This document shows, piece by piece, positions 12,927 to 43,763 of a DNA stretch of 56,442 bases (position 1 is its first letter; each line of letters opens with the position of its first letter). Made by a program: the position numbers and the translations under genes. Source of the DNA: Patescibacteria group bacterium (lineage in GTDB: Bacteria; Patescibacteriota; Minisyncoccia; RBG-13-40-8-A); the NCBI GenBank assembly GCA_018897295.1, contig JAHILA010000018.1, positions 1 to 56,442 on the forward strand. Direction: 5' to 3'. The notes under the pieces are model-generated. The model was given only the letters and a program-made list of their open reading frames with translations. It had not been told where the DNA came from and did not search any database.

Positions 12927-12941
12927 AAGTTCTATATTTAA

Positions 12942-14113: not shown

Positions 14114-14902
14114 TTATTCTCCTAAATATGCCTCCAATACTTTTAAGTTAGTTTTTATTTGGGCTGGATTTCCCTCAGCAATGACTTTACCCTCGTCCAT
14201 CACAATAACTTTATCAGCAATATTTAAAGTAAAATTCATATCGTGCTCAATCAGTAAAATTGTCTCACCGTCTTCTCTTAATTTTAGCAATATTTTGGCG
14301 ATTTCTTGGCGCAGCTTAGGATTTACTCCACCCACTGGTTCGTCCAGCATCAATAATTTATGGGAATTTAAAATAGTTCTTGCTAATTCAACTAATCTTT
14401 TCTGGCCGAAGCTTAAATCTCTGGACAATTTATTGGAAAACTTCTCCATATCAACCATTTCCAGCATTGCTTTTGCTTTCTTTTCCTTGTCCTCCGTAGC
14501 TTTAGCGAAGGAGGATTTGTTCCATATTCCCGCAAGCAAATTTTTCCAGAATTTTTCATCTTCATTGTCTAAAACTATCAAAAGGTTTTCCATAACAGTT
14601 AAATTTCCGAACAATCTGCTTTGCTGAAAAAGACGGGAAATGCCCAAACGAGCAATTTTTTCTGGGTTCAGATTAGTAATATCTATATTGTCTCCGCCCG
14701 AGGCGGATCGGCCCTGGGCCGAAAAAATTATCTTTCCTTTTTCTGGCTTCAAAATACCGGAAATCAGATTAAAAACCGTTGTCTTCCCCGAACCATTGGG
14801 CCCAATCAAAGCAGTAATGGTTTTTTCTTGAACTTCAAAATCGCAGTCATCAACTGCTTTTACCCCGCCGAAATGTTTTTTTAGATTTTTAACTTCTAGC
14901 AT
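14114..14902 (-). CDS. livG: branched-chain amino acid ABC transporter ATP-binding protein (LivG type)
   Basis: 262 aa. Walker A GPNGSGKTT, signature LSFGQKRLV, Walker B LLMLDEPV. Carries two GC-rich inserts. Confidence 0.85.
   Translation of the reverse strand: MLEVKNLKKHFGGVKAVDDCDFEVQEKTITALIGPNGSGKTTVFNLISGILKPEKGKIIFSAQGRSASGGDNIDITNLNPEKIARLGISRLFQQSRLFGNLTVMENLLIVLDNEDEKFWKNLLAGIWNKSSFAKATEDKEKKAKAMLEMVDMEKFSNKLSRDLSFGQKRLVELARTILNSHKLLMLDEPVGGVNPKLRQEIAKILLKLREDGETILLIEHDMNFTLNIADKVIVMDEGKVIAEGNPAQIKTNLKVLEAYLGE
14486..14515. repeat. GC-rich palindromic element, family A copy 1 (inside livG)
   Basis: cttgtcctccgtagctttagcgaaggagga. At least 28/30 identical to copies in argS and (inverted) ileS. 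Confidence 0.75.
14693..14722. repeat. twin GC-rich mini-palindromes inside livG
   Basis: tccgcccgaggcggatcggccctgggccga = ccgcc-cga-ggcgg plus tcggccc-t-gggccga. Encodes SAQGRSASGG, about 10 aa absent from E. coli LivG at this position. Confidence 0.6.
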
Positions 14903-14903
14903 A

Positions 14904-15776
14904 TTATTCTAAATCAAACTTTCCATAAAATCCTCTAGGTTTATAGATTAAAATTAAAAGCAAGAATAGAGCATAAAGAATTTGTCTGGCTGGACCGATA
15001 ATTGATGAGGGAAATCCAATAAATCTTAATGGTTCGGGCAATAAAGTCAAAATTATTGTGGCGATAATCGTTCCTTTTAAAGATGCTAATCCACCGATAA
15101 TCACAATCGCCACAACCGGAATCAACTGCATTAATGTAAAGGACGACGGATCAATAAAAGTAATGTAATGGGCATATAAAGAACCAGCAATGCCAGCAAA
15201 AAACGCAGAAATTCCCAAAGCATAACTTTTCATTTTAAAAGAATTTTTGCCTATTACTCTGGCTGCCAATTCATCGTCCCTGATTGCTTCTAAAACCTTG
15301 CCAAACGGAGATTTAGTGATACGGTTAATAATAAAATAAGAAATTGCGGCAATAATCAGTGTTAAGATTAAAAAACTTAAATTATCGGAAAAAACAAATC
15401 CGAACAAACTCGGTTTAGGAATTCCCGGCAAACCCAATGGCCCACGAGTTAAGCTGGTCCAGTTCAAAGCAACAGCGTAAATCACAAAAGAAAATCCCAA
15501 AGTAGCCAAAGCCAAATAATCACCTTTAATTTTATTCGTTGGAATAGCAAGCAGAAATCCAAAAAGCATTGCTCCAATGCCGGCTAAAATAATACAAATC
15601 CAAAAAGGCCAACCAGCTAAAGCCAGTAAAGCCGAAACATACGCACCAACTGCGTAAAAAGCAATATGGCCAAGATTAAATAATCCGGTAAACCCCACTG
15701 CCAATTGCATCGCAATCGCCAGAATGACATAAATCCCGATTAAGATTAGCAAATGAATTAAATAAGCAGAAAACAT
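14904..15776 (-). CDS. livM: branched-chain amino acid ABC transporter permease (LivM type)
   Basis: 290 aa polytopic membrane protein with LivM-like GLFNLGHIAFYAVGAY motif. Confidence 0.8.
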   Translation of the reverse strand: MFSAYLIHLLILIGIYVILAIAMQLAVGFTGLFNLGHIAFYAVGAYVSALLALAGWPFWICIILAGIGAMLFGFLLAIPTNKIKGDYLALATLGFSFVIYAVALNWTSLTRGPLGLPGIPKPSLFGFVFSDNLSFLILTLIIAAISYFIINRITKSPFGKVLEAIRDDELAARVIGKNSFKMKSYALGISAFFAGIAGSLYAHYITFIDPSSFTLMQLIPVVAIVIIGGLASLKGTIIATIILTLLPEPLRFIGFPSSIIGPARQILYALFLLLILIYKPRGFYGKFDLE

Positions 15777-15785
15777 ATTTATTAT

Positions 15786-16904
15786 TTATTCTTCATACGG
15801 CACAACATGACCATCTTTAATTATAAAAGTTGCCATTTCTGGATTTAATAAATCTCCATTTTCGTCAAAGGTTATATCCCCCGAAACCCCTTCGTAATCT
15901 CTAACTTTATATAACTCATCTTTAACGGCCATACTGTTTACCCCTGCTTTTTTGAGGGCATTAGCTAATATCTTAACCAAGTCATAGGCCTGTGGTGAGC
16001 AGACAATTACCTTGTCAGAACCAGTTTTTTGTAGGAATTTTGACTGAAACTCATTAAGTTTCGCGGATTCAGGAGTGGTTACTTTTACATACATCGCTCC
16101 TTCAACCAAATTACCCAATTCTTGCCACAATCCCGGATTATCCCATAAAGCTCCGCCAATAACCGGTAAGTTAATCCCTAATTCCACCATCTGTCTGAAA
16201 CCAGCTTTAGTATTAGCTGGATCACCTAAAAAGAAAATAATCTCCGCGTCAGTGTCTTTAATTTTTACTAATTGAGTCCTTAAATCAATTGCCTCTTTGC
16301 TAAATCCCTCTTCTATAACTATATCTCCGCCCAATTGATCTAAGGTTTTATTAAATGCCTCTTTTAAACTTAAACCCCAATCGGTTTGAGTATAAAGAAT
16401 AGCCACCTTCTTTAATCCTAATTCATTATAAACAAACTGAGCGGCGTATTTCCCTTGGTCAACATCAGAAGCCATATTTCTAAAAATATAATCTCCGGCA
16501 TTAGTCACTGCCGGATTTGAGCTACAAGGTGATAATAATAACACATTTGACTGTTCGGCAATCGGCGCCACCGGTAAAACTTCATAGGTTATACCAACAA
16601 TCATTATCGGAACCTTATCAATATTGATGAGTTTATTGGCAGCAGTAACTGCTTCATCTCCCTCGGTTTTACTATCTTCATAAATTATCTCTAACATTCT
16701 TCCATTTACTCCACCGATGGAATTAATCTCATCCACAGCTAATTCAATAGCATTCTGCATACCTTCACCAAGAAAACTAACTTGACCGGTCAACGGCAAA
16801 ATCGCTCCAATCTTAATCGTCCCTTTCGGTGCTGGTTTATAGAATACCGCAATTACAATGATAATGATTATGACAACTATAATCGGTATCCAATTTTTTT
16901 TCAT
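15786..16904 (-). CDS. ABC substrate-binding protein, LivJ/K family, paralog 4
   Basis: 372 aa. The first 33 aa are identical to paralog 5 (MKKNWIPIIVVIIIIIVIAVFYKPAPKGTIKIG). Confidence 0.8.
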   Translation of the reverse strand: MKKNWIPIIVVIIIIIVIAVFYKPAPKGTIKIGAILPLTGQVSFLGEGMQNAIELAVDEINSIGGVNGRMLEIIYEDSKTEGDEAVTAANKLINIDKVPIMIVGITYEVLPVAPIAEQSNVLLLSPCSSNPAVTNAGDYIFRNMASDVDQGKYAAQFVYNELGLKKVAILYTQTDWGLSLKEAFNKTLDQLGGDIVIEEGFSKEAIDLRTQLVKIKDTDAEIIFFLGDPANTKAGFRQMVELGINLPVIGGALWDNPGLWQELGNLVEGAMYVKVTTPESAKLNEFQSKFLQKTGSDKVIVCSPQAYDLVKILANALKKAGVNSMAVKDELYKVRDYEGVSGDITFDENGDLLNPEMATFIIKDGHVVPYEE

Positions 16905-16918
16905 AAATTCTTGTTTAA

Positions 16919-18043
16919 TTAATTATTTTCATACGGCACAAACTGGCCGTTTTTGATGGTTTTGAAAGTTATGGGTTTAATTACGTCTCCGTTTTGATCA
17001 AACGTAGTCAACCCTCCAACGCCCGGATAATCTTTAATTTTATATAATTCTTCTTTTATACATATTGTATTTTCTCCACAAGATTTTAAAACTAAAGCAA
17101 TAATTTTTAATGCATCATAAGAATTAGCTGCTAAGGCCTCGCTTTTAACTCCGTAATTCTTCTCATACTGTTTCTGATAATCGGCAATTGCAGGATTATT
17201 AGGATCAAATGCCGGATAAGTATAAATTATTCCATCGCTCAAAGGTGGTTTTACTAAATCAAAAAATTCTTTTGCTTCTATTCCGGTAGAGGCAAATATC
17301 GGTAAATTAATTCCAAACTCTTTTGTCTGTTTTACTATTTCTCCCATTTCCGAAACATAACCAGCCATATAAATTGCATTAGAATTGCTATTTTTTATTT
17401 TGGTTAAAATTGTACGAAAATCTGTTTCTCCTTTTGTATAATGTTCAGCTCCAACAATTTCCCCTTTCAATTCTTCAAATTTTTTGGTAAACCCTGCTTC
17501 ATAACTTAATCCATTTTCAGAATTTACCGCAATAATAAAAGCTTTTTTAATGCCAAGTTCATTAATAACAAACCCAGCCATTTTTTCTCCATGCAAAGTT
17601 CCGCTTTCCCTATTTCGAAAAATATAATCACCGGCATTAGTAATATCGGCACCACTGGCCATTGGAGTAAAAAGTATAACTTTTGCCTTTTCAGCTATTG
17701 GAGCAGCGCCCAGAACAGCATTTGAACTAGCAAAACCAATTATTACTGAAACTTTATCAACATTAATTAATTTAGTTGTCGCTGTTACTGCTTCGTTTGT
17801 TTCGCTTTTACCATCTTCATAGATAATTTCTAATTTTCTCCCTTTAATACCGCCGTTGGAATTGATTTCCTCCAATGCAAGATTTAAGCCATTTTTTAAA
17901 TAATTACCATAAACCGACAATTTTCCTGATAAATCAGCAACAATTCCAATCTTAATCGTCCCTTTTGGCGCTGGTTTATAAAATACCGCAATTACAATGA
18001 TAATGATTATTACAACTATAATCGGTATCCAATTTTTTTTCAT
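16919..18043 (-). CDS. ABC substrate-binding protein, LivJ/K family, paralog 5
   Basis: 374 aa. C-terminus KNGQFVPYENN is identical to paralog 6. Confidence 0.8.
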   Translation of the reverse strand: MKKNWIPIIVVIIIIIVIAVFYKPAPKGTIKIGIVADLSGKLSVYGNYLKNGLNLALEEINSNGGIKGRKLEIIYEDGKSETNEAVTATTKLINVDKVSVIIGFASSNAVLGAAPIAEKAKVILFTPMASGADITNAGDYIFRNRESGTLHGEKMAGFVINELGIKKAFIIAVNSENGLSYEAGFTKKFEELKGEIVGAEHYTKGETDFRTILTKIKNSNSNAIYMAGYVSEMGEIVKQTKEFGINLPIFASTGIEAKEFFDLVKPPLSDGIIYTYPAFDPNNPAIADYQKQYEKNYGVKSEALAANSYDALKIIALVLKSCGENTICIKEELYKIKDYPGVGGLTTFDQNGDVIKPITFKTIKNGQFVPYENN

Positions 18044-18057
18044 AAATTCTTGTTTAA

Positions 18058-19176
18058 TTAATTATTTTCATACGGCACAAACTGGCCGTTTTTGATGGTT
18101 TTAATAATAATTGGCTTAATCGCATCTCCATTCTGATCAAATGAAGTTGTACCACTTACTCCTGGATAATCTCGAATATTATATAGTGCATCTTTTACGC
18201 ATATAGGATTTCCGTCATGACAATTTTCCTTAATAATTTTTGCTAATATCATTATACAGTCATAAGCCTGGGCGGCAAATATGGTTGGATTCTTACCGAA
18301 TTTTTCTGTATATAAATCCCAGAACCTTGGATCAATATTTCTTCCAAAATCTGTTACAGCAAAGATAATGCCCTCTGATAAATTACCCACGGCTTCTGAG
18401 AATTTTGTATCTGTTACAAAGCCATCCTCTGCCAATATCTGGAAAGACATTCCTAATTCGTTCATCTGTTTTATAATGAGCCCTGCTTGAGGCATTAACC
18501 CTCCTATATAAATCGCCTCTGGCTTTCCCGCCTTTATTTTTATAAGTTGGGTTTTAAAATCTGTTGTATCATTACCAAATCCTTCTCTACTCAAAACATT
18601 CTTCCCCTCGTTAATAAATTTATCTGTTATTATCTTATCTCCTAATGTATAGGCGGAACTGGATTGATCATAAATTGTTGCTATAGAATTAAATTTTTGG
18701 ACCGCAAATTCGGCCAGCTTCCCGGTTTTTTGGCTCATTGTAACATGATCTCTAAAGATAAAATCGCCTGCCTGGGTTATTTCATCAGCAGCACTTCCAG
18801 GAGTTATCAAAACTATCCCTTCCTGTTCTGCTAATGGCGCAATGGCCAATGTGCTCGGAGAACAAATAGCTCCTATTACAAGTTTTGCCCCCTTCAGAGT
18901 AAGTTCACGATAACCCGACACAGCCTCTTTAGCATCACATTTCTCATCCGCAAATATTACTTCTATCTTTATTTTGCTGTTTTGATTTAATTTCTCCAAT
19001 GCCAAATTTATTGCTTGTTTTGCGTCCTCGCCTAAATTTGTAGCCTTTACGGTTAATGGCAAAATCGCGCCTATCTTAATCGTCCCCTTCGGTGCGGATT
19101 TATAAAATACTGCCACCAATACAATAACGATTATTATAATAACTATTCCTCCTATTATTTTTGTTGTTTTGTTCAC
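18058..19176 (-). CDS. ABC substrate-binding protein, LivJ/K family, paralog 6
   Basis: 372 aa. Same architecture. Confidence 0.8.
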   Translation of the reverse strand: MNKTTKIIGGIVIIIIVIVLVAVFYKSAPKGTIKIGAILPLTVKATNLGEDAKQAINLALEKLNQNSKIKIEVIFADEKCDAKEAVSGYRELTLKGAKLVIGAICSPSTLAIAPLAEQEGIVLITPGSAADEITQAGDFIFRDHVTMSQKTGKLAEFAVQKFNSIATIYDQSSSAYTLGDKIITDKFINEGKNVLSREGFGNDTTDFKTQLIKIKAGKPEAIYIGGLMPQAGLIIKQMNELGMSFQILAEDGFVTDTKFSEAVGNLSEGIIFAVTDFGRNIDPRFWDLYTEKFGKNPTIFAAQAYDCIMILAKIIKENCHDGNPICVKDALYNIRDYPGVSGTTSFDQNGDAIKPIIIKTIKNGQFVPYENN

Positions 19177-19200
19177 AAGTTTATTTTAATTAATTAATTA

Positions 19201-31468: not shown

Positions 31469-31945
31469 TTAGTACAAATTTTCTATTTCTTTCATCTCTT
31501 CAGGATTATAGCCTAAAAGACTTATTAGCTTTTTTTCAAACTTGTCCGCCAAAGTTTTAATGGAGGCAGAGTCTGCGCAATTTAAATCCTTAAATGTTCC
31601 CAAAACCAATTTCCAGATATCTTCATCCCTTTCTTCTCCGACAATCGCCTCATTGATTAAATCTGCCAGTTTTTTGGCAATTTTTATTTTCTCCAAATCT
31701 TTTTTGATATTTAAAAATTGATCAATCAAAACCGCGTCTTTTAAAATTAAAAAATTCTTGCCTTCAACAAGAATCATCTGCACATACGTAATAACTTCAA
31801 TAGAGTATCTTAATTTACTTTCTAATCTTTTCACGCCTTTGGCGAAAATATTAATCTTTCCCAATTTTTCGCTATAAATGGTCAAAAGCCGGTCAACCTC
31901 ATTGGAATCAACTGATTTCAATATAATCGCCTCGGTTTTTATCAT
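31469..31945 (-). CDS. recO: DNA repair protein RecO (short form)
   Basis: 158 aa. N-terminal OB-fold pattern MIKTEAIILKSVDSNEVDRLLTIYSEKLGKINIFAKGVKR. Shorter than the typical about 240 aa. Confidence 0.6.
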   Translation of the reverse strand: MIKTEAIILKSVDSNEVDRLLTIYSEKLGKINIFAKGVKRLESKLRYSIEVITYVQMILVEGKNFLILKDAVLIDQFLNIKKDLEKIKIAKKLADLINEAIVGEERDEDIWKLVLGTFKDLNCADSASIKTLADKFEKKLISLLGYNPEEMKEIENLY

Positions 31946-32876
31946 GCTTAAAATTCTTTAATAATTTAATCTTTAACTTGTGCCCGCTACAATGACTCAA
32001 AACTCCTAAATATGATTGAATGTTTTTGTTATTTATCCTTTCAAACATTCTTTTCTTGGTTTTGGTGCGTAAAACTCTATAATACGGTAAAGTTACATAT
32101 CCTAAAAAATCAATTCCCTGACTATATTTCCTTATAATAATCTTATCAGGATAGAAGCATAAATTCAATTGATCATTTAAGAATTGGTTTATTGGATTTA
32201 TTAGTTTCTGTAGCTTATCCTTATTTTTGTCTAAAATTACGAAGTCATCTGTATAACGGAGGTAATGTTTAATTTTTAATTTGTGTTTTACAAATTGGTC
32301 TAACTTATTTAAATAAATATTGGCAAAATACTGGCTTGTAAGATTGCCGAGAGGAATGCCCTTATTTGTTTCTGAATTAAAACTAAAAATTATTTCTTTA
32401 ATCAACCGTAAAATATCATTATCCTTTATTCTCTCCTTTAAAATTTTAATTAAGACATCGTGGTCAACGCTGTCAAAAAACTTCTTAATATCGCACTTTA
32501 AACAATAGAAATTAAATTTATTGTTTTGGCTCTGTTTTAATGAAAATGTTCTTAACCTATTAACTGCTTTGTGTGTTCCTTTATTGATTCGGCAGGAATA
32601 AGAGTCATAAATAAATATTTTGTCGTAAATATTGTTTAGATGTTTTGAGATTAAATGATGAATAATTCTATCTCGGACTTTGGCTTTGTGGATATAACGT
32701 GGTTTCGGATCATTAATACGAAATGAAGTGTATCCGGAATGTTTGTAGGTTTTATTCTTTAATTCTTGGTATAATTGGAATATATTGTCTTCCAAATTAA
32801 ATTCAAATTCCAAAACATCTTTTCTTTTTGATTTTCCTTTTTTGAATTCTCGCCAAGACGAAAACAAATTTTCCAA
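31908..32876 (-). CDS. diversity-generating retroelement reverse transcriptase (true N-terminus probably further upstream, to 32971 via the homopolymer)
   Basis: 322 aa from a TTG. Motif 4 IPLGNLTSQYFANIYL (DGR-type GxxxSQ), YTDDFVIL catalytic box, DPKPRYIHKAKVRDRIIHH. The frame stays open upstream and encodes a Brt-like IKRHNFEKINNYGDLITLENLF. Confidence 0.9.
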   Translation of the reverse strand: MENLFSSWREFKKGKSKRKDVLEFEFNLEDNIFQLYQELKNKTYKHSGYTSFRINDPKPRYIHKAKVRDRIIHHLISKHLNNIYDKIFIYDSYSCRINKGTHKAVNRLRTFSLKQSQNNKFNFYCLKCDIKKFFDSVDHDVLIKILKERIKDNDILRLIKEIIFSFNSETNKGIPLGNLTSQYFANIYLNKLDQFVKHKLKIKHYLRYTDDFVILDKNKDKLQKLINPINQFLNDQLNLCFYPDKIIIRKYSQGIDFLGYVTLPYYRVLRTKTKKRMFERINNKNIQSYLGVLSHCSGHKLKIKLLKNFKHDKNRGDYIEIS

Positions 32877-32928
32877 AGTTATTAAATCGCCGTAATTATT
32901 AATTTTTTCAAAATTATGTCTTTTAATG

Positions 32929-32939
32929 CCCCCCCCCCC
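32929..32939. repeat. C11 (G11 on minus strand) homopolymer tract
   Basis: Counted directly: gcc + ccccccccc. Lies between the ATG and the conserved body of both the RT (minus) and the Avd-like ORF (plus). Confidence 0.95.
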
Positions 32940-32941
32940 AA

Positions 32942-33286
32942 CGGGTTGAAAACGAAGTTTCTATCGTTCATAAAATTATTGAGTTCTATAAATTATTCCA
33001 CGAATACTTAAAGTCATTTCCAAGATCTGAGAAATATACATTAGGAGAAAAAATCGAAAATCTAATTATAGAATTACTGATAACTACATTGAAAAGTGCT
33101 TACTCACATAAGGACAAAAAATTGCCATTATTGAATAAAATTGATAACAGAATTTTTATTTAAAAAACACTTATTCGATTAGCGAAAGAGGTTAAGTCAT
33201 TAGATATTAAAAAATATATTGCTTTAGAGAAAAAACTGCAAGAAATCGGAAAAATGCTAGGCGGTTGGATTAAATCAATAAAATAA
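32942..33286 (+). pseudogene. avd: Avd-like four-helix-bundle accessory protein (23S rRNA IVS protein family). As assembled it has no in-frame start and an internal TAA.
   Basis: Manual translation: RVENEVSIVHKIIEFYKLFHEYLKSFPRSEKYTLGEKIENLIIELLITTLKSAYSHKDKKLPLLNKIDNRIFI*KTLIRLAKEVKSLDIKKYIALEKKLQEIGKMLGGWIKSIK*. The FPxxEKYxLG and IGKMLGGWI motifs are typical. The stop is at 33161-33163. Confidence 0.6.
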
Positions 33287-33294
33287 ACTAAACG

Positions 33295-33321
33295 AAAGAG
33301 CATCTAATAATGATGCTCTTT
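33295..33321. terminator. hairpin aaagagcatc-taataat-gatgctcttt: terminator of the avd-like gene on +, and a structured element just 3' of TR on the minus transcript
   Basis: Perfect 10-bp stem followed by a T-run on + strand. Sits 18 nt from the TR 3' boundary. Confidence 0.45.
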
Positions 33322-33338
33322 TTCGCGCGGAGAGACTT

Positions 33339-33464
33339 CTGGAGAAAACCAGACGCCGAACCATAGTTGGCATTAGTGTTGCTCACCCAATTCGTGTTGA
33401 ACTTGACCTTGCCATCGTTAAAGTTGAAATACGGCGCGCGGCTGAAATCGCCATCAGCATCAGG
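33339..33464 (-). repeat. DGR template repeat (TR)
   Basis: Gap-free 126-nt alignment to VR1 and VR2. The TR is A-rich on the coding-sense strand (7 Asn codons in YFNFNDGKVKFNTNWVSNTNANY). Confidence 0.85.
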
Positions 33465-33601
33465 TTTATTGTTTTTGTCCGTCTGTTTCACTGGAAATCG
33501 AGATTGGCTTTATATACCAAAATTCTCTCAATCCTGCATTTTATTCGACGGCACCCTAATAATATTAGAGACCCACGCCAGACAAAAACAAGCAGTATCT
33601 C

Positions 33602-33610
33602 ATTATAGCA
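33602..33610 (-). promoter_or_regulatory. extended -10 promoter (TGCTATAAT) about 130 nt upstream of TR, candidate TR-RNA/RT promoter
   Basis: Minus strand reads agtgTGcTATAATg. No strong -35. Confidence 0.35.
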
Positions 33611-33703
33611 CACTCTTGGAAGTCGTGACCACCAAGATTCTGGCTATTTATAGTTTATCAAATTCTTATTTTTAAAACAATATTTATTTTTATAAATTAA
33701 AAT

Positions 33704-33731
33704 GCGGGATGCCTCCATTGAGACATCCCGC
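33704..33731 (-). terminator. conserved GC-rich hairpin 22 nt downstream of the target-1 stop codon (28 nt beyond the VR1 3' boundary): terminator and/or DGR target-recognition cruciform
   Basis: gcgggatg...catcccgc stem. The same element with a 12-bp perfect stem sits at the equivalent position after VR2. Confidence 0.6.
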
Positions 33732-33753
33732 CAAGAATTCAAGAATTCCAGAG

Positions 33754-34620
33754 TTACTGCTGGAGAAAACCAGACGCCGAACCATAGTGGGCACTAGCGC
33801 TGCCCACCCAATCCGTGCCGAACCTGACCTCGCCACCGCTAAAGCTGAAACACGGCGCGCGGCTGAAATCGCCATCAGCAGCAGGCGCGTATTCGTCACC
33901 AGCGCAGTCGATCCAAGGATCGTCGTAGTGCTGGAGACGTTCGGGATGCGTGAGAATCATGCACCCGATTTTGAATGCGCCGAGTCCGAACTCATTGCCT
34001 GTAAAGACCTCACGGGCCCGACGAACGGAGCGACCCCGGTGACGAAGACCGAACTGCGAGGCAACGACCAGAATGTCGAAGCCCGTTTGTTGGTTACCTA
34101 ACATCTGGAGCTTCTTGGCCGTGCGCTCATGCTGCCGGAGATACTGCTCTCCGATCCTGCCTTCGCGGTGGTTGTAGAAGTTGCCGTCGCGCTGCTTCTT
34201 GATCAGATCGAGCACCTTCTGTACTGCTTCGTTGTAGGTCTTGGCGACCGACTGCCAACGCGGGATGGCGAACCATCCTTCGGCATTCGGCGGAAGCGGC
34301 TGCTGTGCCAACTTCTCATCGGCGAATCCGGCGCCTGGGAAGAGTTGCCGCAGGATGTTGGTCTGCTCCGTGATTCCTTTCGGCTTGTAGCCCGACAGGT
34401 ATCCGTAGCTGGACTTTACTTCCTCGTCGGCGAACTGGTTGCTCAGCGAGTGCTTCTTGATGGAAACGGTAATGTCGGCTTGGAATTCGTCGCCGTTCTC
34501 GATGAGTTTCTGAATACCGTCCTTGTCGAGGAGACCCTCGGCAATTGCGCGATCCACAGCATCTTCCGCGAACCGCTTAACCTGTTTCTGTTGACCCGAC
34601 GTGATCGATTGTGTCGTCAT
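33754..34620 (-). CDS. DGR target (variable) protein 1, GC-rich, no signal peptide, C-terminal VR
   Basis: 288 aa. C-terminus GDFSRAPCFSFSGGEVRFGTDWVGSASAHYGSASGFLQQ. RBS aaaggag upstream. Paralog of 42888-43763. Confidence 0.85.
   Translation of the reverse strand: MTTQSITSGQQKQVKRFAEDAVDRAIAEGLLDKDGIQKLIENGDEFQADITVSIKKHSLSNQFADEEVKSSYGYLSGYKPKGITEQTNILRQLFPGAGFADEKLAQQPLPPNAEGWFAIPRWQSVAKTYNEAVQKVLDLIKKQRDGNFYNHREGRIGEQYLRQHERTAKKLQMLGNQQTGFDILVVASQFGLRHRGRSVRRAREVFTGNEFGLGAFKIGCMILTHPERLQHYDDPWIDCAGDEYAPAADGDFSRAPCFSFSGGEVRFGTDWVGSASAHYGSASGFLQQ
33760..33885 (-). repeat. DGR variable repeat 1 (VR1)
   Basis: 15 mismatches to TR, all at TR adenines (T on + strand). The 3' 28 nt (33760-33787) are identical to TR (IMH-like). 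Confidence 0.85.
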
Positions 34621-34709: not shown

Positions 34710-34738
34710 ATTTTAGGGTACTGGTTATAGTATAGCAA
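34710..34738 (-). promoter_or_regulatory. putative sigma70-type promoter of target gene 1 (TTGCTA-17-TAAAAT)
   Basis: Same spacing and -10 are conserved upstream of target gene 2 (GTGCTA-17-TAAAAT), within a conserved leader. Confidence 0.45.
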
Positions 34739-34743
34739 AATGA

Positions 34744-37605
34744 CTAAACTTTGTCAATAGTTAACACCCTTTTGGCGGAAAATATAATTTCTTCGGCAAT
34801 GACTTGCTTTTTGATTTGCTCTGCGTATTTTTCTATAATTTCTTTTCCCTCCTTCGCTGAAGCTACGGAGGACAAGCCGTAATAAACTCTTATCTTATCT
34901 TTCGGCGTTAAATTGGCTTTTTTCCTTAAAACCTGAACACTTCTTACAAAATCCCTAACCATTCCTTCTTCTTTTAATTCTGGAGTAATTTCAGCTCTCA
35001 ACCCTATATTTATGATATCTTTATTTCGATTAGAATCTACAACAATTTTTTTAACGTTTATTTCTTCTTCAATTAATTTCGAGAGTTCACTTTCTAGTTT
35101 AAAATCAGGAATAATTAATTCCGAAAGTGGTTGTCGTACTTTTATCCCTTTTGATGCTCGTATTTGCAGGGCCATACTACAGATTTCTCTAATCTGTTCC
35201 ATTTTTTCTTCAAGCTTTTCGTCAATCAATTTTTTATCTACCTTTGGCCAATCTTCAAGATGAACCGACTCTTTGTCCCCGCCAATTTCCTTATATATGT
35301 GCTCTGCTGTAAACGGCATTACCGGCGCCATTATTTTGGATAATTCCAATAAAACATATTTCAGGGTCTGAACAGCTTCTTTTTTATTATCAGATTTAAA
35401 TCTCTCTCGCGAACGCCTTAAATACCAGGTCGACAATTCATCAATAAATCCGGCAAGCGGCCGAGTGGCTTCATTTAAATCATAATTATTGTATCCTTCA
35501 GTAATTTCTTTTTTCAGAGATTCGATTTTTGAAAGAATCCATTTATCCAAAACATTCTTGCTTTTTGTGCTGGCTTCTGCTTCGCTTTCAAACATTTTAT
35601 AAAACGACAAAACATTCAATAAAATCAGTAAAATCTTTTTTACCACCTCATCAACTCCCTTTTCCGAAAAACACAAATCATCAGCTTTCATTACCGAAGA
35701 AGTGGCTAAATAATAACGCACTGCATCAGCGCCATGTTTTTCAAAAACATTCATTGGGTCAGGATAATTATTCAGATGCTTGGACATTTTTTTGCCGTCT
35801 TCAGCCAAAACCATGCCATTCACAATCACATTTTTAAATGCTTCTTTGCCTTTAATCGCAGACGCTAAAACGTGCAAATAATAAAACCATGCCCTCGTCT
35901 GATCCACGCCCTCGGCAATAAATTGCGCTGGAAAGTTTTCCTCGAATTTCTCTTTGTTTTCAAAGGGATAATGCATTTGTCCATAAGGCATTGAACCCGA
36001 TTCAAACCAACAATCTAAAACATCAGGAATCCTTCGCATCATTCCGCCCTGCCCTGAGCCTGTCGAATGGGCGCATTTTTCACAAGGAAACGTAATTTTA
36101 TCCATAAAGTGTTTATGCAAATCCGTAATTTTTTCTTCGCTTAATTCTTCCAATTCTTTTATTGAACCGATTACTTTTTTCTCTTTGCATTTATCACAAA
36201 CCCAAATTGGAATTACCGAGCCCCAGAACCGCTGGCGCGAAATTGACCAATCGCGCGCGCCTTCCAACCATTTGCCAAATCTCCCCTCTTTAATGTGCTC
36301 TGGCACCCAATTTATTTTCTTGGCATATTTCAGCATTTTATCTTTCAGCTCGATAATATTAACAAATAAAGAAGAAGTTGCGTAATTTAAAAGCGGGGAT
36401 TCGCAACGATAACAAAAAGGATAGGAATGAATAAATTTCTCTGTTTTAAAAACCAGATTTTTCTTCTCTAAAAACTCAATTATTTTTTTATCTGTTGATT
36501 GCGGATTAGATTTCGGCTTAACTTCCAAACCAACAAAATCTTTTGCTTCATCAGTAATCTGTCCGTCTATTTTGACATGCTGGATAAACGGCAGATTTTT
36601 CTCCTTACCCAAATTCATATCATCCTCGCCGAATGCAGGCGCGATATGCACAACGCCTGTGCCATCTTCAATAGTCACAAAATCAGCTAATTGAATCGTA
36701 TAAAGATTTTCCCTACCCGCCATTGCAAGCGAAGCGTTGCGGGTGGATAAATAATAATTAAATAATGGTTTGTATTTTTTACCCTCCAAATCTTTGGCTT
36801 TTGTTTTCCCGATTATCTCATGTTTTTTATTGCCAAAAATTGCATCGAGATTTTGTTCGGCTAAAATGTATTTCCCATCATCTGATTTAACTTCGACATA
36901 ATTGATATGCTTGCCAATTGCTAAAGCAACATTGCCCGGTAGAGTCCAGGGCGTGGTTGTCCAGGCCAAAATATAAGTTCCTGGTTCATCTACTAATTCA
37001 AACTTGGCAATAATTGAAATATCTTCAATGTCCTGATAATTATCGCTTACTTCATGCTGGGATAATGTTGTTTCGCATCTTGGGCAAATATGCATTGATT
37101 TATATCCCTCATAAATCAATTTTTTATCCCATAATTGTTTAAAAACCCACCATACGCTCTCCATAAAGCTTGGATCCATAGTATGATAAGCATTTTCCAT
37201 ATCCGCCCATCTGCCCAATCTCTCAATTACCTTTTTCCATTCGCCCACATATTTTAAAACCTTGCTTCGCGCTATTTCATTGAATCTATCGACTCCAATC
37301 GCCTCAATATCTTTTTTGTGTTTTAATTCCAATTCTTCTTCAACTATGTTCTCAATCGGCAGACCATGGGTATCCCAACCCCATTTTCTTTCTACTTTGT
37401 AACCACGCATTGTCCAGTATCGCGGAACCATATCTTTCATTAAAGATGCGACAATATGACCATAGTGCGGGGTGCCAGTGGCAAATGGTGGCCCATCATA
37501 AAATACAAAATCCCCCTTCGGCGATTTTTTTGCGAGGGATTTTTCAAAAATCTTATTTTCTTTCCAAAATTCCAATATTTTCTTTTCTATTTCAGGTATA
37601 TTCAC
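34744..37605 (-). CDS. ileS: isoleucine--tRNA ligase
   Basis: 953 aa. PPFATGTPHYGHIV, KMSKHLNN, editing domain, zinc-binding cysteines. Confidence 0.95.
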   Translation of the reverse strand: MNIPEIEKKILEFWKENKIFEKSLAKKSPKGDFVFYDGPPFATGTPHYGHIVASLMKDMVPRYWTMRGYKVERKWGWDTHGLPIENIVEEELELKHKKDIEAIGVDRFNEIARSKVLKYVGEWKKVIERLGRWADMENAYHTMDPSFMESVWWVFKQLWDKKLIYEGYKSMHICPRCETTLSQHEVSDNYQDIEDISIIAKFELVDEPGTYILAWTTTPWTLPGNVALAIGKHINYVEVKSDDGKYILAEQNLDAIFGNKKHEIIGKTKAKDLEGKKYKPLFNYYLSTRNASLAMAGRENLYTIQLADFVTIEDGTGVVHIAPAFGEDDMNLGKEKNLPFIQHVKIDGQITDEAKDFVGLEVKPKSNPQSTDKKIIEFLEKKNLVFKTEKFIHSYPFCYRCESPLLNYATSSLFVNIIELKDKMLKYAKKINWVPEHIKEGRFGKWLEGARDWSISRQRFWGSVIPIWVCDKCKEKKVIGSIKELEELSEEKITDLHKHFMDKITFPCEKCAHSTGSGQGGMMRRIPDVLDCWFESGSMPYGQMHYPFENKEKFEENFPAQFIAEGVDQTRAWFYYLHVLASAIKGKEAFKNVIVNGMVLAEDGKKMSKHLNNYPDPMNVFEKHGADAVRYYLATSSVMKADDLCFSEKGVDEVVKKILLILLNVLSFYKMFESEAEASTKSKNVLDKWILSKIESLKKEITEGYNNYDLNEATRPLAGFIDELSTWYLRRSRERFKSDNKKEAVQTLKYVLLELSKIMAPVMPFTAEHIYKEIGGDKESVHLEDWPKVDKKLIDEKLEEKMEQIREICSMALQIRASKGIKVRQPLSELIIPDFKLESELSKLIEEEINVKKIVVDSNRNKDIINIGLRAEITPELKEEGMVRDFVRSVQVLRKKANLTPKDKIRVYYGLSSVASAKEGKEIIEKYAEQIKKQVIAEEIIFSAKRVLTIDKV
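34847..34876. repeat. GC-rich palindromic element, family A copy 2, inverted (inside ileS)
   Basis: ccctccttcgctgaagctacggaggacaag is the reverse complement of the livG/argS copies. Translated as LSSVASAKEG. Confidence 0.75.
36711..36746. repeat. GC-rich palindromic element, family B copy 2 (inside ileS)
   Basis: ccctacccgccattgcaagcgaagcgttgcgggtgg. Translated as TRNASLAMAGR. Confidence 0.7.
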
Positions 37606-39164
37606 ATTTTTTCGGGCTTACTGATGCCCATTAAATTCAAAATATTTTCCAAGACGATTTTTGTAGCCATAATTAATGCCAGACGCGCTTTTTCCAAATC
37701 TTTTTTCTCTCCCAAAACATGGCATTCAGTATAAAATCTATGAAACAATGATGCAACTTTCATTGCGTATGCCGGCAAACGATGAACTTGATAATCTTTT
37801 GCTATTTCTTCAATAATTTCCGGAAACGCGATTAAGTTTTTAATCAGTTCTATTTCAGCAGAATGATTTAGTAATTCTAATTTTACATTCAAATTATGCC
37901 CGCTGGTTTTTCTTAAAATGCTGTTAATGCGGGCATATGCGTATTGGACATAATAGACAGGATTTTTGTCCGATTTCTCTTTTGCTAAATCCAAATCAAA
38001 ATCCATCTGTTTATCATTTGAATGCATCAAAAAGAAAAATCTGACCACATCAGAACCAACTGCATCAAGTAAATCATCCATAGGAATAAAAGTTCCCAGG
38101 CGTTTGGACATTTTTATTTTTTTTCCTTTTTCTATTACTGTAATAAATTGCTGTAAAATTATTTCCAATTGCCCCTTATATCCGATTGCCTCAACCCCAG
38201 CCATTAAGCCAGGCACATCGCCGTGATGGTCAGCGCCCCAGATATTTATTACTTTATCGAATTTTCTCTCCTTAAATTTATTATAATGATAAGCAATATC
38301 GCTGGCTAAATATGTTTTTAAGCCGTCTTTTTTAATCAGAACCCTATCCCGATTATCTCCTAAACTGCTGCTTTTAAACCAAGTCGCGCCATCCTGTTCG
38401 TATAATAAATTTTTGTCTTTTAATAATTTGATTATTTTCTCTGACAAGTCCTTTTTATGCAAATTAGATTCCCAAAACCATTCGTCATATTTAATCCCGA
38501 ATTTATCAATCGTCTTTTTTATCATTTCATCAATAATAATTTCCGCTGCCTTCTGACCTACTTCATATGCGTCTTTTTCCTTAATTCTGTCGGCCAATAA
38601 ATCAATATACTCTCCTTTATACTGCGCCTGGTCATCTTTTAATATTGAATGCCCTAAAACAGCTATTTGGTTCCCGGCATTATTTACATAAAACTCTTTT
38701 TTTATTTTATATCCAACAAAATTTAAAATATTTGCCAAAACATCTCCCATTGGACCGCCTCTGCCATTGGCAACTGTCAGGGGGCCAGTGGGATTAGAGG
38801 AAATAAATTCCACTTGTACTTTTTTGCCTTTACCAATATCGGTTTTCCCGTAATTTTTATTCTCTTTGATAATTTCTTTAATCTGGTTTTGCAAAAATTC
38901 TGGCTTGAAATAAAAATTTATAAAACCATTTACAATATCGATTTTTTCGAAAATTCCATCGTCTATTTTTGACCTGATTTCATTTGCAACTTCCATTGGA
39001 CCTCGCTTTTCTTTTTTTGCTAAAATTAAAGCCACATTTGTGGCATAATCGCCGTATTCCTTATTTTCCGGAATCTCTACAGTAAAATTCTTGTCCTCCG
39101 TAGCTTCAGCGTAGGAGGAAACTGCTTTCTTTATTATTTCCTTAATCTGCTTTCGAATTGTCAT
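37602..39164 (-). CDS. argS: arginine--tRNA ligase
   Basis: 520 aa. SSNPTGPLTVANGRG (HIGH-equivalent), MSKRLG-like KMSK region, DALR anticodon-binding C-terminus. Confidence 0.95.
   Translation of the reverse strand: MTIRKQIKEIIKKAVSSYAEATEDKNFTVEIPENKEYGDYATNVALILAKKEKRGPMEVANEIRSKIDDGIFEKIDIVNGFINFYFKPEFLQNQIKEIIKENKNYGKTDIGKGKKVQVEFISSNPTGPLTVANGRGGPMGDVLANILNFVGYKIKKEFYVNNAGNQIAVLGHSILKDDQAQYKGEYIDLLADRIKEKDAYEVGQKAAEIIIDEMIKKTIDKFGIKYDEWFWESNLHKKDLSEKIIKLLKDKNLLYEQDGATWFKSSSLGDNRDRVLIKKDGLKTYLASDIAYHYNKFKERKFDKVINIWGADHHGDVPGLMAGVEAIGYKGQLEIILQQFITVIEKGKKIKMSKRLGTFIPMDDLLDAVGSDVVRFFFLMHSNDKQMDFDLDLAKEKSDKNPVYYVQYAYARINSILRKTSGHNLNVKLELLNHSAEIELIKNLIAFPEIIEEIAKDYQVHRLPAYAMKVASLFHRFYTECHVLGEKKDLEKARLALIMATKIVLENILNLMGISKPEKM
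39090..39119. repeat. GC-rich palindromic element, family A copy 3 (inside argS)
   Basis: cttgtcctccgtagcttcagcgtaggagga. Translated as SSYAEATEDK. Confidence 0.75.
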
Positions 39165-40426: not shown

Positions 40427-41164
40427 TTAAATTTTTTGCCATTCTATGTAACCATCCCTGTCCACATATTCAACAGTCCCTTCTGGTTCGTGACCAATTG
40501 CCTTATATCTTTGTCCTTTAATGACAACCTCTGCCTCGCCACTGTATGATGAAACAACACCCCATCTGATCGTATTATAACTCTTATTTTCTATACCACA
40601 TTCAAGAGCAAGCATTTCAAGTTCATCAGAAGTAAACTGGTTAAATCCTTGACTCAAAGTCTTTTCAGCCAAGTCTACTCTTCGATTTAAAGAGTTAAGT
40701 TGTTGTGTTGACATTCTAAATAATGATTCTTGTTCTGGAGATAACGACTCACTTTTTCTAGTAGTAGATGGTATTTCTTGAGGTATAAATTCTATGTAAC
40801 CATCCCTGTCCACATATTCAGCAGTTCCTTCTGGTCCATGACCCACTGCTTTGTATTTTCTACCATTTATTTCAACTTGAGCCTCACCACTATATTTTGA
40901 AATTCTTCCCTCTCTATCTGTATCGTAAGATTTATCTTGTACTCCGCCTTCTGATGCCATTTTATAAACATCTCGTAATGCTACTGAATCCATATCAGTT
41001 TTAAGCGCTGTTTGTGCATTGTCCATTTGTATTCTAATAATTTCAACCTGTTTCATGGTCTGCTTGAAAATCTCTCTGCCTTCAAAGGCGAGTACTTTTA
41101 ATCCAGACTCTTTGGCCTCCCTGCGCTTTTGTAATGACATGTCGCCTTTAAGTTTTTCTGGCAT
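40427..41164 (-). CDS. hypothetical protein with two copies of an about 45-aa C-terminal-type module
   Basis: 245 aa. ISKYSGEAQVEINGRKYKAVGHGPEGTAEYVDRDGYIEF and VSSYSGEAEVVIKGQRYKAIGHEPEGTVEYVDRDGYIEW. The DNA repeat is near-identical over about 33 nt. Confidence 0.5.
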   Translation of the reverse strand: MPEKLKGDMSLQKRREAKESGLKVLAFEGREIFKQTMKQVEIIRIQMDNAQTALKTDMDSVALRDVYKMASEGGVQDKSYDTDREGRISKYSGEAQVEINGRKYKAVGHGPEGTAEYVDRDGYIEFIPQEIPSTTRKSESLSPEQESLFRMSTQQLNSLNRRVDLAEKTLSQGFNQFTSDELEMLALECGIENKSYNTIRWGVVSSYSGEAEVVIKGQRYKAIGHEPEGTVEYVDRDGYIEWQKI

Positions 41165-41239: not shown

Positions 41240-41482
41240 TTAAACTAATCGTTTTTTAAAGAAAGCATTGCCCGAACCGGTTTTTAAATATTTTTCGAAT
41301 TGATAGGCCTTCTCTTTCTCTGGAAAAGCACAATAAAAAACTAATTTATATGGTTTTCTTGATGAAGTATAAATAACTCGTCCATTGTTATGTTCTTTAA
41401 TTCTTTGTTTAAGGTCTTCTGTTGAACCAGCGTAATATGTTTTATCTTTCTGGCTTTGAAGGATATAAGTATAATACATCAA
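41240..41482 (-). CDS. GIY-YIG nuclease family small protein
   Basis: 80 aa. YYTYILQS..DKTYYAGSTEDLKQRIKEHN.G pattern. Confidence 0.75.
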   Translation of the reverse strand: MMYYTYILQSQKDKTYYAGSTEDLKQRIKEHNNGRVIYTSSRKPYKLVFYCAFPEKEKAYQFEKYLKTGSGNAFFKKRLV

Positions 41483-41527: not shown

Positions 41528-41552
41528 TTCGTTTCTATTTAATATTGTCATT

Positions 41553-41626
41553 AGAATGGCAAGGATGGCTTGCCATCCGAAGCTCCGATAGAATGACAAG
41601 GATGGCTTGCCATCCGAAGCTCCGAT
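41553..41626. repeat. tandem direct repeat, 2 x 37 nt, each containing a ggatgg-cttg-ccatcc hairpin
   Basis: agaatg(g/a)caaggatggcttgccatccgaagctccgat twice, 36/37 identical. Followed by the gctccgat-tt-atcggagc palindrome. Confidence 0.85.
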
Positions 41627-41642
41627 TTATCGGAGCGAAGGA

Positions 41643-42001
41643 TGGAGACGGGGAGAATTGAACTCCCGTCTCGAAGGCTCTTTAAAATAATTCGACAAGC
41701 TTGGTCTGTTTATTTTCTCGGTTATTTAGATAAAAAGCAGACAAAAATCAGAATAACCTGACCCAATTTCATTTCAGTGTTTTGCATTGGGAATCAAGAC
41801 ACCTATCTCAAATGCCTTTCGGCACTATAACACTTCAATCGCCTATTGAGAATCTCAATTAAAGTGGCTGCGACTTAATAAATTAAGCTGTAGCGAAAGC
41901 AAAATTTGTTTTTGCGTTTGTTTTTTTCAGATTTTAACGAGATGCTGAAGTCCTCGGCTTGCTTATTTTAAAAAGATCTTCGATCGAAACCTATCGTCCC
42001 C
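41643..42001 (-). ncRNA. ssrA: tmRNA (ssrA), tag reading frame GCA AAA ACA AAT TTT GCT TTC GCT ACA GCT TAA = AKTNFAFATA*
   Basis: 5' GGGGACGAUAGGUUUCGAUCG and 3' GAGACGGGAGUUCAAUUCUCCCCGUCUCCA. Acceptor pairs with a G3:U wobble. T arm GGGAG-UUCAAUU-CUCCC. Directly downstream of smpB. Confidence 0.85.
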
Positions 42002-42835: not shown

Positions 42836-42865
42836 GCGGGATGTCTCCATTGAGAGACATCCCGC
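42836..42865 (-). terminator. conserved hairpin downstream of VR2 (gcgggatgtctc-cattga-gagacatcccgc) followed by a T-run on the minus strand
   Basis: Perfect 12-bp stem. Minus strand continues ACTTTTTTAT. Homologous to 33704-33731. Confidence 0.65.
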
Positions 42866-42887: not shown

Positions 42888-43763
42888 TTACTGCTGGAGA
42901 AAACCAGACGCCGAACCATAGCGGGCATTAGTGAGGCCCACCCAACGCGTGCCGAACAAGACCCCGCCAACGCGGAAGCGGAAGCACGGCGCGTCGTGGA
43001 AATCGCCAGCAGCATCAGGCGCATACTCGTTGCCAGCGCAGTCGATCCATAGGTCGTCATAAGAGACGAACCGTTCAGGATGTGTCAGAAGCATGCAACC
43101 TGCCTTGAATGCGCCGAGTCCGAACTCGTTGGCCATAAAGACCTCGTGAGTCCGACGAACGGAGCGACCCCGATGGCGAAAACCGAACTGAGCGGCGACG
43201 ACCAGAATGTCGAAGCCCGTCTGTTGGTCACCCAACATCTGGAGCTTCTTGGCCGTGCGCTCGTGCTGGCGGAGATACGTCTCTCCGATTTCGCCTCCGC
43301 GGTAGTTGTAGAAGTTGCCCTTGCGCTGCCTCTTGATCAGGTCGAGCACCTTCTGAACCGCCTCGTTGTAGGTCTTGGCAACCGACTGCCAACGCGGGAT
43401 GGCGAACCATCCTTCGGCGCCATCGGGGAGCTCAGACAAGCTCTTGGCGAACTCGAGGGTCTGACTCGGGTTGAGATTGAAAATCTTGGCGATTGCCTTG
43501 ATCTGATCCGCGATCGGCTTTGGCCCCTTGTACTCCTTCGGGTACGTGCGGTTGGAACAAACTTCCTCGTCGGCGAACTGGTTGGACGCGGACAGCTCAG
43601 TGATGAGCTTCGCGATCCCGTCCTGCAGTTCACCACCGCGCTCGTTGAGTCGCTGTGCGCGCGCATCGTCGAGCTTGGACTTGTTGTAGACGGCCTCGAA
43701 GAGACCGACTGCGTGGAGACCTTTCGGGTCTCGGCTGGTGATCAATGTTTTTAACATCGTCAT
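42888..43763 (-). CDS. DGR target (variable) protein 2, GC-rich paralog of 33754-34620
   Basis: 291 aa. C-terminal half is highly similar to target 1 (AEGWFAIPRWQSVAKTYNEAVQKVLDLIK...FDILVVA.QFG.RHRGRSVRR). Ends GDFHDAPCFRFRVGGVLFGTRWVGLTNARYGSASGFLQQ. Confidence 0.85.
   Translation of the reverse strand: MTMLKTLITSRDPKGLHAVGLFEAVYNKSKLDDARAQRLNERGGELQDGIAKLITELSASNQFADEEVCSNRTYPKEYKGPKPIADQIKAIAKIFNLNPSQTLEFAKSLSELPDGAEGWFAIPRWQSVAKTYNEAVQKVLDLIKRQRKGNFYNYRGGEIGETYLRQHERTAKKLQMLGDQQTGFDILVVAAQFGFRHRGRSVRRTHEVFMANEFGLGAFKAGCMLLTHPERFVSYDDLWIDCAGNEYAPDAAGDFHDAPCFRFRVGGVLFGTRWVGLTNARYGSASGFLQQ
42894..43019 (-). repeat. DGR variable repeat 2 (VR2), remote
   Basis: Gap-free 126-nt alignment to TR. 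By my count there are 26 mismatches: 21 at TR adenines and 5 non-adenine differences clustered in the 5' (coding-sense) third. Confidence 0.8.

Follow-up and report, generated by a model that had tools for sequence, protein, structure and literature searches.

Our analysis of a 56,442-nucleotide stretch of DNA from a Patescibacteria group bacterium (GenBank assembly GCA_018897295.1, contig JAHILA010000018.1; hereafter the window, meaning the whole stretch) indicated that it very probably carries a chromosomal diversity-generating retroelement (DGR) of the type found in the candidate phyla radiation (CPR)/Patescibacteria. The element consists of a target gene with its variable repeat (VR1), a template repeat (TR), an accessory variability determinant gene (avd) on the opposite strand, a reverse transcriptase (RT) gene, and a remote second target gene with a further variable repeat (VR2). 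It is genuine but ordinary; the kind is already well described, and its novelty as such is low. The set of parts and the footprint of adenine mutation point to an element that worked in the recent past on both targets. At present it is most likely silent, because an 11-nt C/G run places RT and avd out of frame and avd contains a TAA codon. As one more DGR in a well-charted class, the element itself matters less than the comparative by-products of its study, since the slippery run, the RNA leader of the TR, and the guanine-plus-cytosine (GC)-rich targets appeared as family-wide regularities that the window exemplifies.

The relationship between the repeats provided the most direct evidence of past activity. 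Realignment of the TR with VR1 gave an ungapped match over 126 nt with 15 mismatches, as a first-pass annotation of this DNA had counted by hand, and tabulation of the mismatch classes assigned every one of them to a TR adenine (naive chance probability, ~3e-10, with adenine at 23% of the TR). The 97 non-adenine positions of the TR were all unchanged in VR1, and the element must therefore have worked recently. The differences had been called strictly adenine-directed, which held for VR1 and failed for VR2, where 5 of the 26 lay elsewhere. The translations of the TR and VR1 were reproduced exactly as originally written. Adenines in the TR were distributed over codon positions 1, 2, and 3 as 13, 16, and 0, with seven AAY codons, and the computed coding capacity of the TR amounted to 2.9e17 DNA variants and 1.2e17 stop-free peptide variants.

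The 3′-terminal 28 nt (ctatggttcggcgtctggttttctccag, 33366-33339), described earlier as invariant, were indeed the same in TR, VR1, and VR2. The TR edge that had been placed at 33339 proved less sharp, since TR/VR similarity continued to ~33330, with a fixed difference at 33338 (A in the TR, C in the VRs). Past the shared 28 nt, the TR reads AAGTCTCTCC and the VRs read CAGTAACTCT. A GAAGTYTC consensus was found 3′ of the TR across loci with unrelated target families, the VRs having GCAGT or GTAGT at that place. This boundary motif probably acts as a discriminator resembling IMH*, the TR counterpart of the initiation of mutagenic homing (IMH) site, with a presumed role in priming.

The RT itself is probably of the DGR type, as indicated by its signature motif and by comparison with known structures. 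Both GIPLGNLTSQYFANIYL and the YTDD box reported in the first-pass annotation were found in the open reading frame (ORF) at 31908-32876. DGR RTs are characterized by [I/V/L]GxxxSQ, other RTs having QGxxxSP (PMC7826257); the window RT carries LGNLTSQ, which fits the former, together with a PKPR motif containing the arginine equivalent to R74 of the Bordetella phage RT (bRT). Its best match in PDB was 8ub7_A (E 2.7e-39, residues 2-283), which is bRT, because residues 74, 181, and 187 (the R of PKPR and the two ends of IGSLTSQ) fit the published numbering. Retron-type RTs, group II maturases, Drt3a, and Cas-associated RTs matched at 1e-19 or worse. The body of the RT is full length with all motifs, and its homologues number at least 7,989, the named ones coming from Patescibacteria.

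An account in which no retroelement has been active, the TR and VRs being diverged repeats or paralogues, or the RT belonging to a retron, a group II intron, or a defense system, is extremely improbable. It could draw on NCBIfam and PADLOC matches of the RT to group II, Drt3a, and UG-type RTs, all of which were sub-threshold and of the kind that any bacterial RT yields. It would have to explain why 15 of 15 and 21 of 26 differences fall on one base of one copy, why the TR adenines are placed by codon frame, why the RT has the DGR signature in place of QGxxxSP, why the match to bRT stands far above that to all other RTs, and why avd is present. Intron RNA domains were likewise lacking, with no Rfam group II or retron hit. 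The adenine footprint and the PDB comparison of the RT refuted this account.

The DGR reading of the locus was supported, with the amendment that avd had been overlooked. All sequence hallmarks of a DGR that were examined were found, comprising an RT of that type, a noncoding TR, two C-terminal VRs with adenine-specific differences, an invariant 3′ boundary, and a GC hairpin after each VR. The conceptual translation of avd matched bAvd (PF22296) over its full length (E 7e-20) and reached 80.5 bits against NCBIfam NF033474 DivGenRetAVD (cutoff, 80), and its frame translates to a four-helix-bundle protein. The order of TR (minus strand), avd (plus), and RT (minus, 31908-32971 with its 5′ extension) corresponds to architecture B3 and recurs in related loci. 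The TR-(avd)-RT layout is well documented in CPR genomes, as the first-pass annotation had held of CPR DGRs generally: it accounts for ~90% of CPR DGRs (Wu et al. 2018, PMC5758913), which form a clade of their own (clade 2) with targets lacking recognizable domains (Roux et al. 2021, PMC8144416). Scanning genomes for the target protein and metagenomes for the RT added 165 loci (designated below by L numbers). The same layout occurred in 12 loci with the same target family; in the 8 of them with tabulated TR/VR pairs, the differences at TR adenines were 17/17, 20/21, 12/13, 19/20, 19/19, 26/26, 22/22, and 14/14.

The chromosomal setting that had been proposed was also borne out. The element is flanked by recO, genes for the isoleucyl- and arginyl-tRNA synthetases (IleRS and ArgRS), L20/L35/IF3, SmpB, and transfer-messenger RNA (tmRNA), and the 38-nt overlap between the RT ORF and the recO-like ORF (31469-31945; RecO_N) was found as described. 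A prophage origin was rejected on the basis of these housekeeping flanks and of pattern scans of viral contigs, which returned no relatives at their limited sensitivity.

By analogy with the paradigm of Bordetella phage BPP-1, a noncoding RNA of ~300-350 nt would comprise a structured leader, the 126-nt TR, AAGTCTCTCC, and a terminal hairpin. An RT-Avd complex would copy this RNA into complementary DNA (cDNA), faithfully at U, C, and G and randomly opposite the 29 TR adenines, and the cDNA would then replace the 3′ end of either target gene. Direction would be set by the shared 28-nt boundary, the differing sequences beyond it, and the GC hairpin 3′ of each VR. In this way, 20 codons of a C-terminal beta-rich surface would be recoded to give up to ~1e17 peptides, leaving the scaffold untouched.

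Several observations weigh against a working DGR of this description. The five VR2 differences away from adenines lie at TR positions 33442, 33440, 33439, 33429, and 33420; from 33419 to the 3′ end, all VR2 differences fell on TR adenines (16/16). The C-type-lectin folds that characterize known DGR targets were not matched significantly by the confident model of target 1. In the assembled genotype, neither enzyme ORF is in frame with its conserved start, and a TTA-to-TAA change has put a nonsense codon in avd where relatives have Leu. The sole other record with the window RT (GCA_018895295.1, JAHION010000016.1) was 100% identical over 20,969 bases; being the same sequence, it cannot serve as an independent check on the TAA and the C11 length. 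Finally, the part that binds RT-Avd, the site of priming, and both RNA termini are predictions.

Features of the DGR locus in the window (strand and position refer to the forward strand of the contig)
Feature	Position	Strand	Remarks
Reverse transcriptase, mechanical ORF from first TTG, 322 aa	31908..32876	-	RVT_1 E 4.5e-24
Conserved 5′ extension of RT frame, out of frame here	32877..32971	-	ATG 32971-32969, TTG 32941-32939, through G run
avd (accessory variability determinant), disrupted	32916..33286	+	Frameshift relative to ATG 32916; in-frame TAA 33161-33163
Homopolymer C11 (+) / G11 (RT sense)	32929..32939	.	In head-to-head overlap of RT and avd frames
Stem-loop just 3′ of TR, terminator-like	33295..33321	-	Between TR and convergent avd stop; 10-bp stem, T-rich tail
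TR-specific 3′ boundary motif AAGTCTCTCC	33329..33338	-	VRs have CAGTAA here
Template repeat (TR)	33339..33464	-	29 adenines in 20 codons
Structured RNA leader 5′ of TR	33465..33644	-	5′ hairpin 33644-33604; P1 33591-33580/33480-33469 around internal hairpins
GC-rich 12-bp hairpin, 4-nt loop	33704..33731	-	25 nt past target-1 stop codon; T-rich tail
Target gene 1, 288 aa, 57% GC	33754..34620	-	Carries VR1
VR1	33760..33885	-	15/15 TR differences at TR adenines
Promoter-like site of target 1 (TTGACA-17-TGcTATACT)	34729..34757	-	Followed by ~100-nt AT-rich leader
Hairpin downstream of VR2	42836..42865	-	GC-rich; 12-bp stem, 4-nt loop, T-rich tail
Target gene 2, 291 aa, 58% GC	42888..43763	-	Paralogue of target 1; carries VR2, 9.1 kb away
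VR2	42894..43019	-	21/26 differences at TR adenines; other 5 clustered in 5′ third

Present activity is doubtful because of the in-frame TAA in avd and the loss of frame between each enzyme gene and its conserved start. The RT gene had been delimited as 31908-32876, which is correct as the ORF from the first TTG and leaves out a conserved N-terminus that lies upstream in another frame. The RTs of relatives begin 17-31 codons 5′ of the ENL motif, and the 322-aa product from the internal TTG is, by homology, short of ~21-31 N-terminal residues. With the assembled C11, translation of RT from ATG 32971 stops after 29 codons and that of avd from ATG 32916 after 31. A run of C9 or C12 would open both frames, giving an RT of 353/354 aa that starts MNDRNFVFNPLGGG(G)IKRHNFEK and an avd that reads as far as the TAA, whereas runs of 10 or 11 lead to a stop in RT after 15-29 codons. 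Read from these conserved, predicted starts, the enzyme genes of the assembled genotype appear not to be translatable, and the resulting silence would be either a reversible OFF state or the start of decay.

The closest full relative, L122 from an aquifer metagenome, has the same type of target, a near-identical TR, an RT with 77% identity, and an intact avd with 85% identity that encodes Leu where the window has TAA; it also has 1 nt more between the run and ATCGTTCAT. avd was intact in 12 other related loci. Measured against L122, the window has lost 1 nt from the overlap and has TAA in place of TTA, and the decay stages seen in related genomes are clear (L001/L009 without an RT within 10 kb; L007 without avd and RT). 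These differences suit a terminal decay in which the DGR died recently, the frameshift, the lost starts, and the avd nonsense codon being ordinary inactivating mutations and the TR/VR footprint a fossil. We consider this possible and rather doubtful, as VR1 has zero non-adenine differences over 97 positions, the body of the RT is complete and lacks none of the motifs, avd continues to reach the equivalog cutoff, and both defects could be assembly or consensus errors.

The position of the frameshift drew attention to the run itself, which has no second counterpart (G/C run of at least 7) in the 56-kb window. Of the 73 distinct related RT elements whose upstream sequence was long enough, 46 had a run of G7-12 at the same place, upstream of RT, and 4 had (GT)n instead (loci among L089, L091, and L094-L173). 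Run lengths of 9, 10, and 11 were found in 15, 20, and 5 elements, and the run was G on the RT strand in every case. Elsewhere in those loci, 6 G/C runs of at least 7 occurred over 504 kb, which corresponds to an enrichment of ~300-fold at the RT/avd site. The run reads Gly-Gly-Gly in the RT and Pro-Pro-Pro in Avd, and a conserved His codon in each gene is, on the opposite strand, the ATG of the other. Elements without the run have back-to-back ATGs and no overlap. When contigs with identical RT 5′ ends were grouped, 3 of 10 groups differed by one base in the run; L097/L098 (10 versus 9) and L119/L123 (10 versus 11) came from different samples and had flanks 99.7-100% identical.

Run lengths from n-2 to n+2 were simulated in 48 loci, and the opening of both ORFs from upstream starts was scored. 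The length that opened both was n-1 in 28 loci, n in 9 loci, and n+1 in 11. In the 30 loci with a single permissive class, 22 runs were assembled 1 nt too long, 4 were exact, and 4 were one nt short (chi-square p = 2e-5, uncorrected for relatedness and hence inflated). A Shine-Dalgarno role for the poly-G run was tried and rejected, as the downstream ATGs sit 13-36 nt from the run, which is too far.

A reversible switch or recoding, in which the mutator is under the control of the run as a functional simple-sequence element and a one-base slip turns RT and avd on or off together, is quite possible, though we stop short of calling it probable. Slipped-strand phase variation with OFF predominating, transcriptional slippage, and a +1 ribosomal shift on CCC-C / GGG-G would each fit, and the window would be in the OFF phase, one insertion from ON (C12). 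Support comes from the uniqueness of the run in the window and its enrichment in relatives, its constant strand and replacement by (GT)n in 4 elements, the 9/10 and 10/11 lengths in near-identical contigs from different samples, the joint restoration of both window ORFs by C9 or C12, the excess of single-permissive-length elements assembled exactly 1 nt longer (22/30), and the run-less relatives with their back-to-back ATGs. A literature search, which did not extend to the main CPR DGR paper (Paul et al. 2017), also turned up no report connecting DGRs with homopolymers, slippage, or phase variation. On the other side, the avd TAA is beyond rescue by slippage, so a switch alone would not restore function in the window. 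Homopolymer lengths are error-prone in short-read assemblies, and all the data may be Illumina. The start codons are predictions, and in some relatives an ATG that belongs to the RT lies past the run. Because both ATGs are tied to His codons, the rescue of RT and avd together counts as one condition and not two. The relatedness of the loci inflates the p-value.

At a broader scale, a large clade of CPR DGRs, the element of the window among them, may couple the expression of RT and Avd through a shared hypermutable G/C run or (GT)n, so that both would depend on a one-base slip that is either heritable or made in transcription or translation, with GC-rich-island targets traveling along; we advance this tentatively. 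It is equally tentative that such coupling amounts to a built-in stochastic on/off or throttle control of targeted hypermutation, which to our knowledge is undescribed. A mutator that never switches off is costly. If the run gates RT and Avd, it would offer a concrete, testable answer to the question of how DGRs are restrained in the most DGR-rich bacterial group. The CPR DGR papers PMC5758913 and PMC8144416 mention neither the C/G run nor the head-to-head ORF overlap nor the GC-rich targets.

The two target genes share an AT-rich promoter/leader and a 3′ hairpin; their N-terminal ~105 residues have diverged, and the remainder is 85-95% identical at the DNA level. The family is large (2,363 homologues in one search; 1,776 clusters at 50% identity in another), with no Pfam, NCBIfam, or PADLOC match for either target or 63 family members and no PDB relative by sequence or profile search. 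An AlphaFold2 model of target 1 (pLDDT, the predicted local distance difference test score, 95.3; pTM, the predicted template-modeling score, 0.86) has three N-terminal helices, a mixed alpha/beta core, and the VR on C-terminal beta strands. Foldseek comparison of the model with PDB and BFVD gave no match at E <= 0.001; the weak local top hits, spanning ~35-66 residues, were to C-type-lectin-like folds and comprised EMS16, BDCA2, FGE, PvdO, and TvpA, a Treponema DGR target. Homologues with 40-45% identity were present in Acidobacteriaceae (Terracidiphilus, Granulicella; L046-L088), never beside an RT, and the scaffold family is therefore wider than its use as a DGR target.

The targets stand out by composition. 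Their GC content is 57-58%, in a window of 36% and with an RT of 27.6%, and they are the only ORFs of the window above 50%. The excess begins and ends at the ORF ends, and the GC content at third codon positions (57-90% along the length) shows an excess that is uniform along the gene. CPR copies of the family, with or without a nearby DGR, had 54-67% GC versus 33-50% in their flanks, and acidobacterial copies matched their own genome. In 39 target ORFs from several unrelated families at CPR DGR loci (L015-L172), median GC was 53.7% for the target, 35.3% for the RT, and 38.8% for the flank; the target exceeded the flank in 38 of 39, with a median difference of +14 points over the flanks and +18 over its own RT. 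Whole-gene adenine mutagenesis was rejected as the cause, with A (23%) and T (19%) both reduced on the coding strand, as was recent import of the whole cassette, with RT and avd host-like or lower in GC. Separate horizontal histories, selection on codon usage, and biased gene conversion among paralogues remain as candidates.

A discordance between targets and enzymes was also apparent in the RT comparisons. Apart from that of L122, the most similar RTs (L089, L091, and L095; 78-80% identical) serve another target family, which ends in LRAREVVS, and RTs paired elsewhere with the target family of the window were only 45-55% identical to its RT. Targets and enzymes have therefore been re-paired in evolution, and the GC-rich targets, together with ~80%-identical RTs serving unrelated targets, suggest that the two have separate histories. 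Named homologues of both RT and target came from Patescibacteria lineages.

Other features of the related loci bear on how the cassettes move and end. L089 and L091 share gene order (TsaE, 5′-3′ exonuclease, Fpg, DUF3048, HolA, S20, RuvA, FemAB, Mur ligase), with the DGR cassette elsewhere in each, and in both, as in the window, the RT gene runs at its 3′ end into the adjacent housekeeping gene. It appears that the cassette is moved as a whole. Orphan VR-TR pairs were found in L001/L009 (L001 6735-7404), with 17/17 differences at adenines, avd reduced to a remnant of 45 aa, and an RT missing for at least 10 kb around, and in L007 (1129-1790), with 18 adenine and 6 non-adenine differences and neither avd nor RT. 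In these cases, either the RT is supplied from elsewhere or the pairs are stages of decay.

The leader upstream of the TR (~170 nt) was conserved irrespective of target family. When 18 loci with different targets were aligned, P1, a 12-bp long-range helix ending 4 nt before the TR, was paired in 94.9% of cells and showed compensatory changes in 10 of 12 pairs; 0 of 500 column shuffles were as good, and slid controls were 36-59% paired. The minimum-energy fold of the window recovered P1, the internal hairpins, the 5′ hairpin, and the terminal hairpin. RNAalifold recovered the closing helix only, the internal hairpins being lost to misalignment. Rfam at the gathering threshold returned only tmRNA and one tRNA for the window and nothing for the DGR regions of 14 related loci; the 5′ hairpin of the leader gave a sub-threshold match to RT-7 (27.8 bits versus a gathering threshold of 116.8) over the first 41 positions only. 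This covariation-backed leader can serve as a starting model of the DGR RNA in the TR-(avd)-RT layout.

On the other side of the TR, the stem-loop (-15.6 kcal/mol, z = -3.3) had counterparts in all related loci examined, where a 9-14-bp hairpin of unrelated sequence occupied the same place, ~5-20 nt past GAAGTYTC. GC-rich inverted repeats downstream of the VR occur in a minority of DGRs. Compared with the hairpin of VR1, that of VR2 has an insertion and a G-to-A change, and its stem is still paired. Most related loci, whatever their target family, have 3-7 copies of (C)CTTG, ~8-10 nt apart, between the VR and the GC hairpin (L001, L015, L017, L025-L027, and L089-L165); the window has a short version at 33732-33753, with GAATTCTT twice only. 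These repeats may be part of target-site recognition.

The remainder of the window contains further repeats. A ~30-nt palindromic repeat, CTTGTCCTCCGTAGCTTCAGCGWAGGAGGA, occurs inside coding sequence in both orientations (14486-14515, 34843-34876, 39090-39121, and, more weakly, 31541-31570); near the IleRS C-terminus and the ArgRS N-terminus, it forms short in-frame peptide insertions resembling Rickettsia palindromic elements. Directly 3′ of the tmRNA gene (41640-42001, minus), two tandem 37-nt units with 97% identity lie at 41552-41625, each with the hairpin GGCAAGGATGGCTTGCC, and a GIY-YIG ORF (41240-41482) is located nearby. Repeated modules at 10600-19200, spaced 1133-1139 and 3977-3978 nt apart (families D2, D3, D5, D8, D9, D11, and D12), suggest a tandem family of paralogous genes. 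At 40427-41164 (minus), a 245-aa protein with no Pfam match has an internal duplication (163-nt repeat, 348 nt apart) that ends ...YSGEAEV.I.G..YKA.GH.PEGT.EYVDRDGYIE.

Comparison with known systems places these observations in context. The run resembles the poly-G/C tracts of contingency loci in Campylobacter, Neisseria, and Haemophilus in consisting of 9-12 G/C, in its place at the 5′ ends of reading frames of an AT-rich genome, and in differing in length between otherwise identical sequences, here contigs of relatives. It differs from them in that one run would serve two divergent, overlapping mutator genes rather than a surface-structure gene and in that the assembled length is mostly one above the in-frame length; switching is a proposal from sequence in the present case. 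The leader can be set beside the structured RNAs found near RT genes, including RT-7 and RT-10, of which RT-10 lies between TR and brt in BPP-1 and other RT motifs were guessed to serve other DGRs (Weinberg et al. 2017, PMC5737381). Unlike these, the leader described here is 5′ of the TR and not between TR and RT, and its match is to one hairpin and far below threshold.

The BPP-1 DGR (mtd-avd-TR-brt) shares with the present element an RT of the DGR type that has [I/V/L]GxxxSQ and the counterpart of R74, a homologue of Avd, a TR of ~130 nt, adenine-only TR-to-VR differences at codon positions 1-2, a C-terminal VR, a conserved IMH-like 3′ boundary, and a GC hairpin downstream of the VR. The element of the window is, in contrast, chromosomal and not phage-borne, has avd on the opposite strand between TR and RT with no long TR-to-RT spacer on the TR strand, and has two targets, one of them 9 kb away, that are not Mtd-like and have no significant fold match. 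In BPP-1, an essential RNA element and the priming adenosine lie in a 140-nt spacer 3′ of the TR (PMC7826257), whereas the 3′ side is short here and the conserved structure is 5′ of the TR; the spacer model is inapplicable as it stands to the TR-(avd)-RT layout. The B3 DGRs of CPR and DPANN genomes (PMC5758913, PMC8144416) correspond most fully, with the same layout, the same host group, and targets lacking recognizable domains or transmembrane segments. Nothing essential separates the element of the window from them, its distinguishing marks being an interrupted avd and two enzyme genes that are out of frame.

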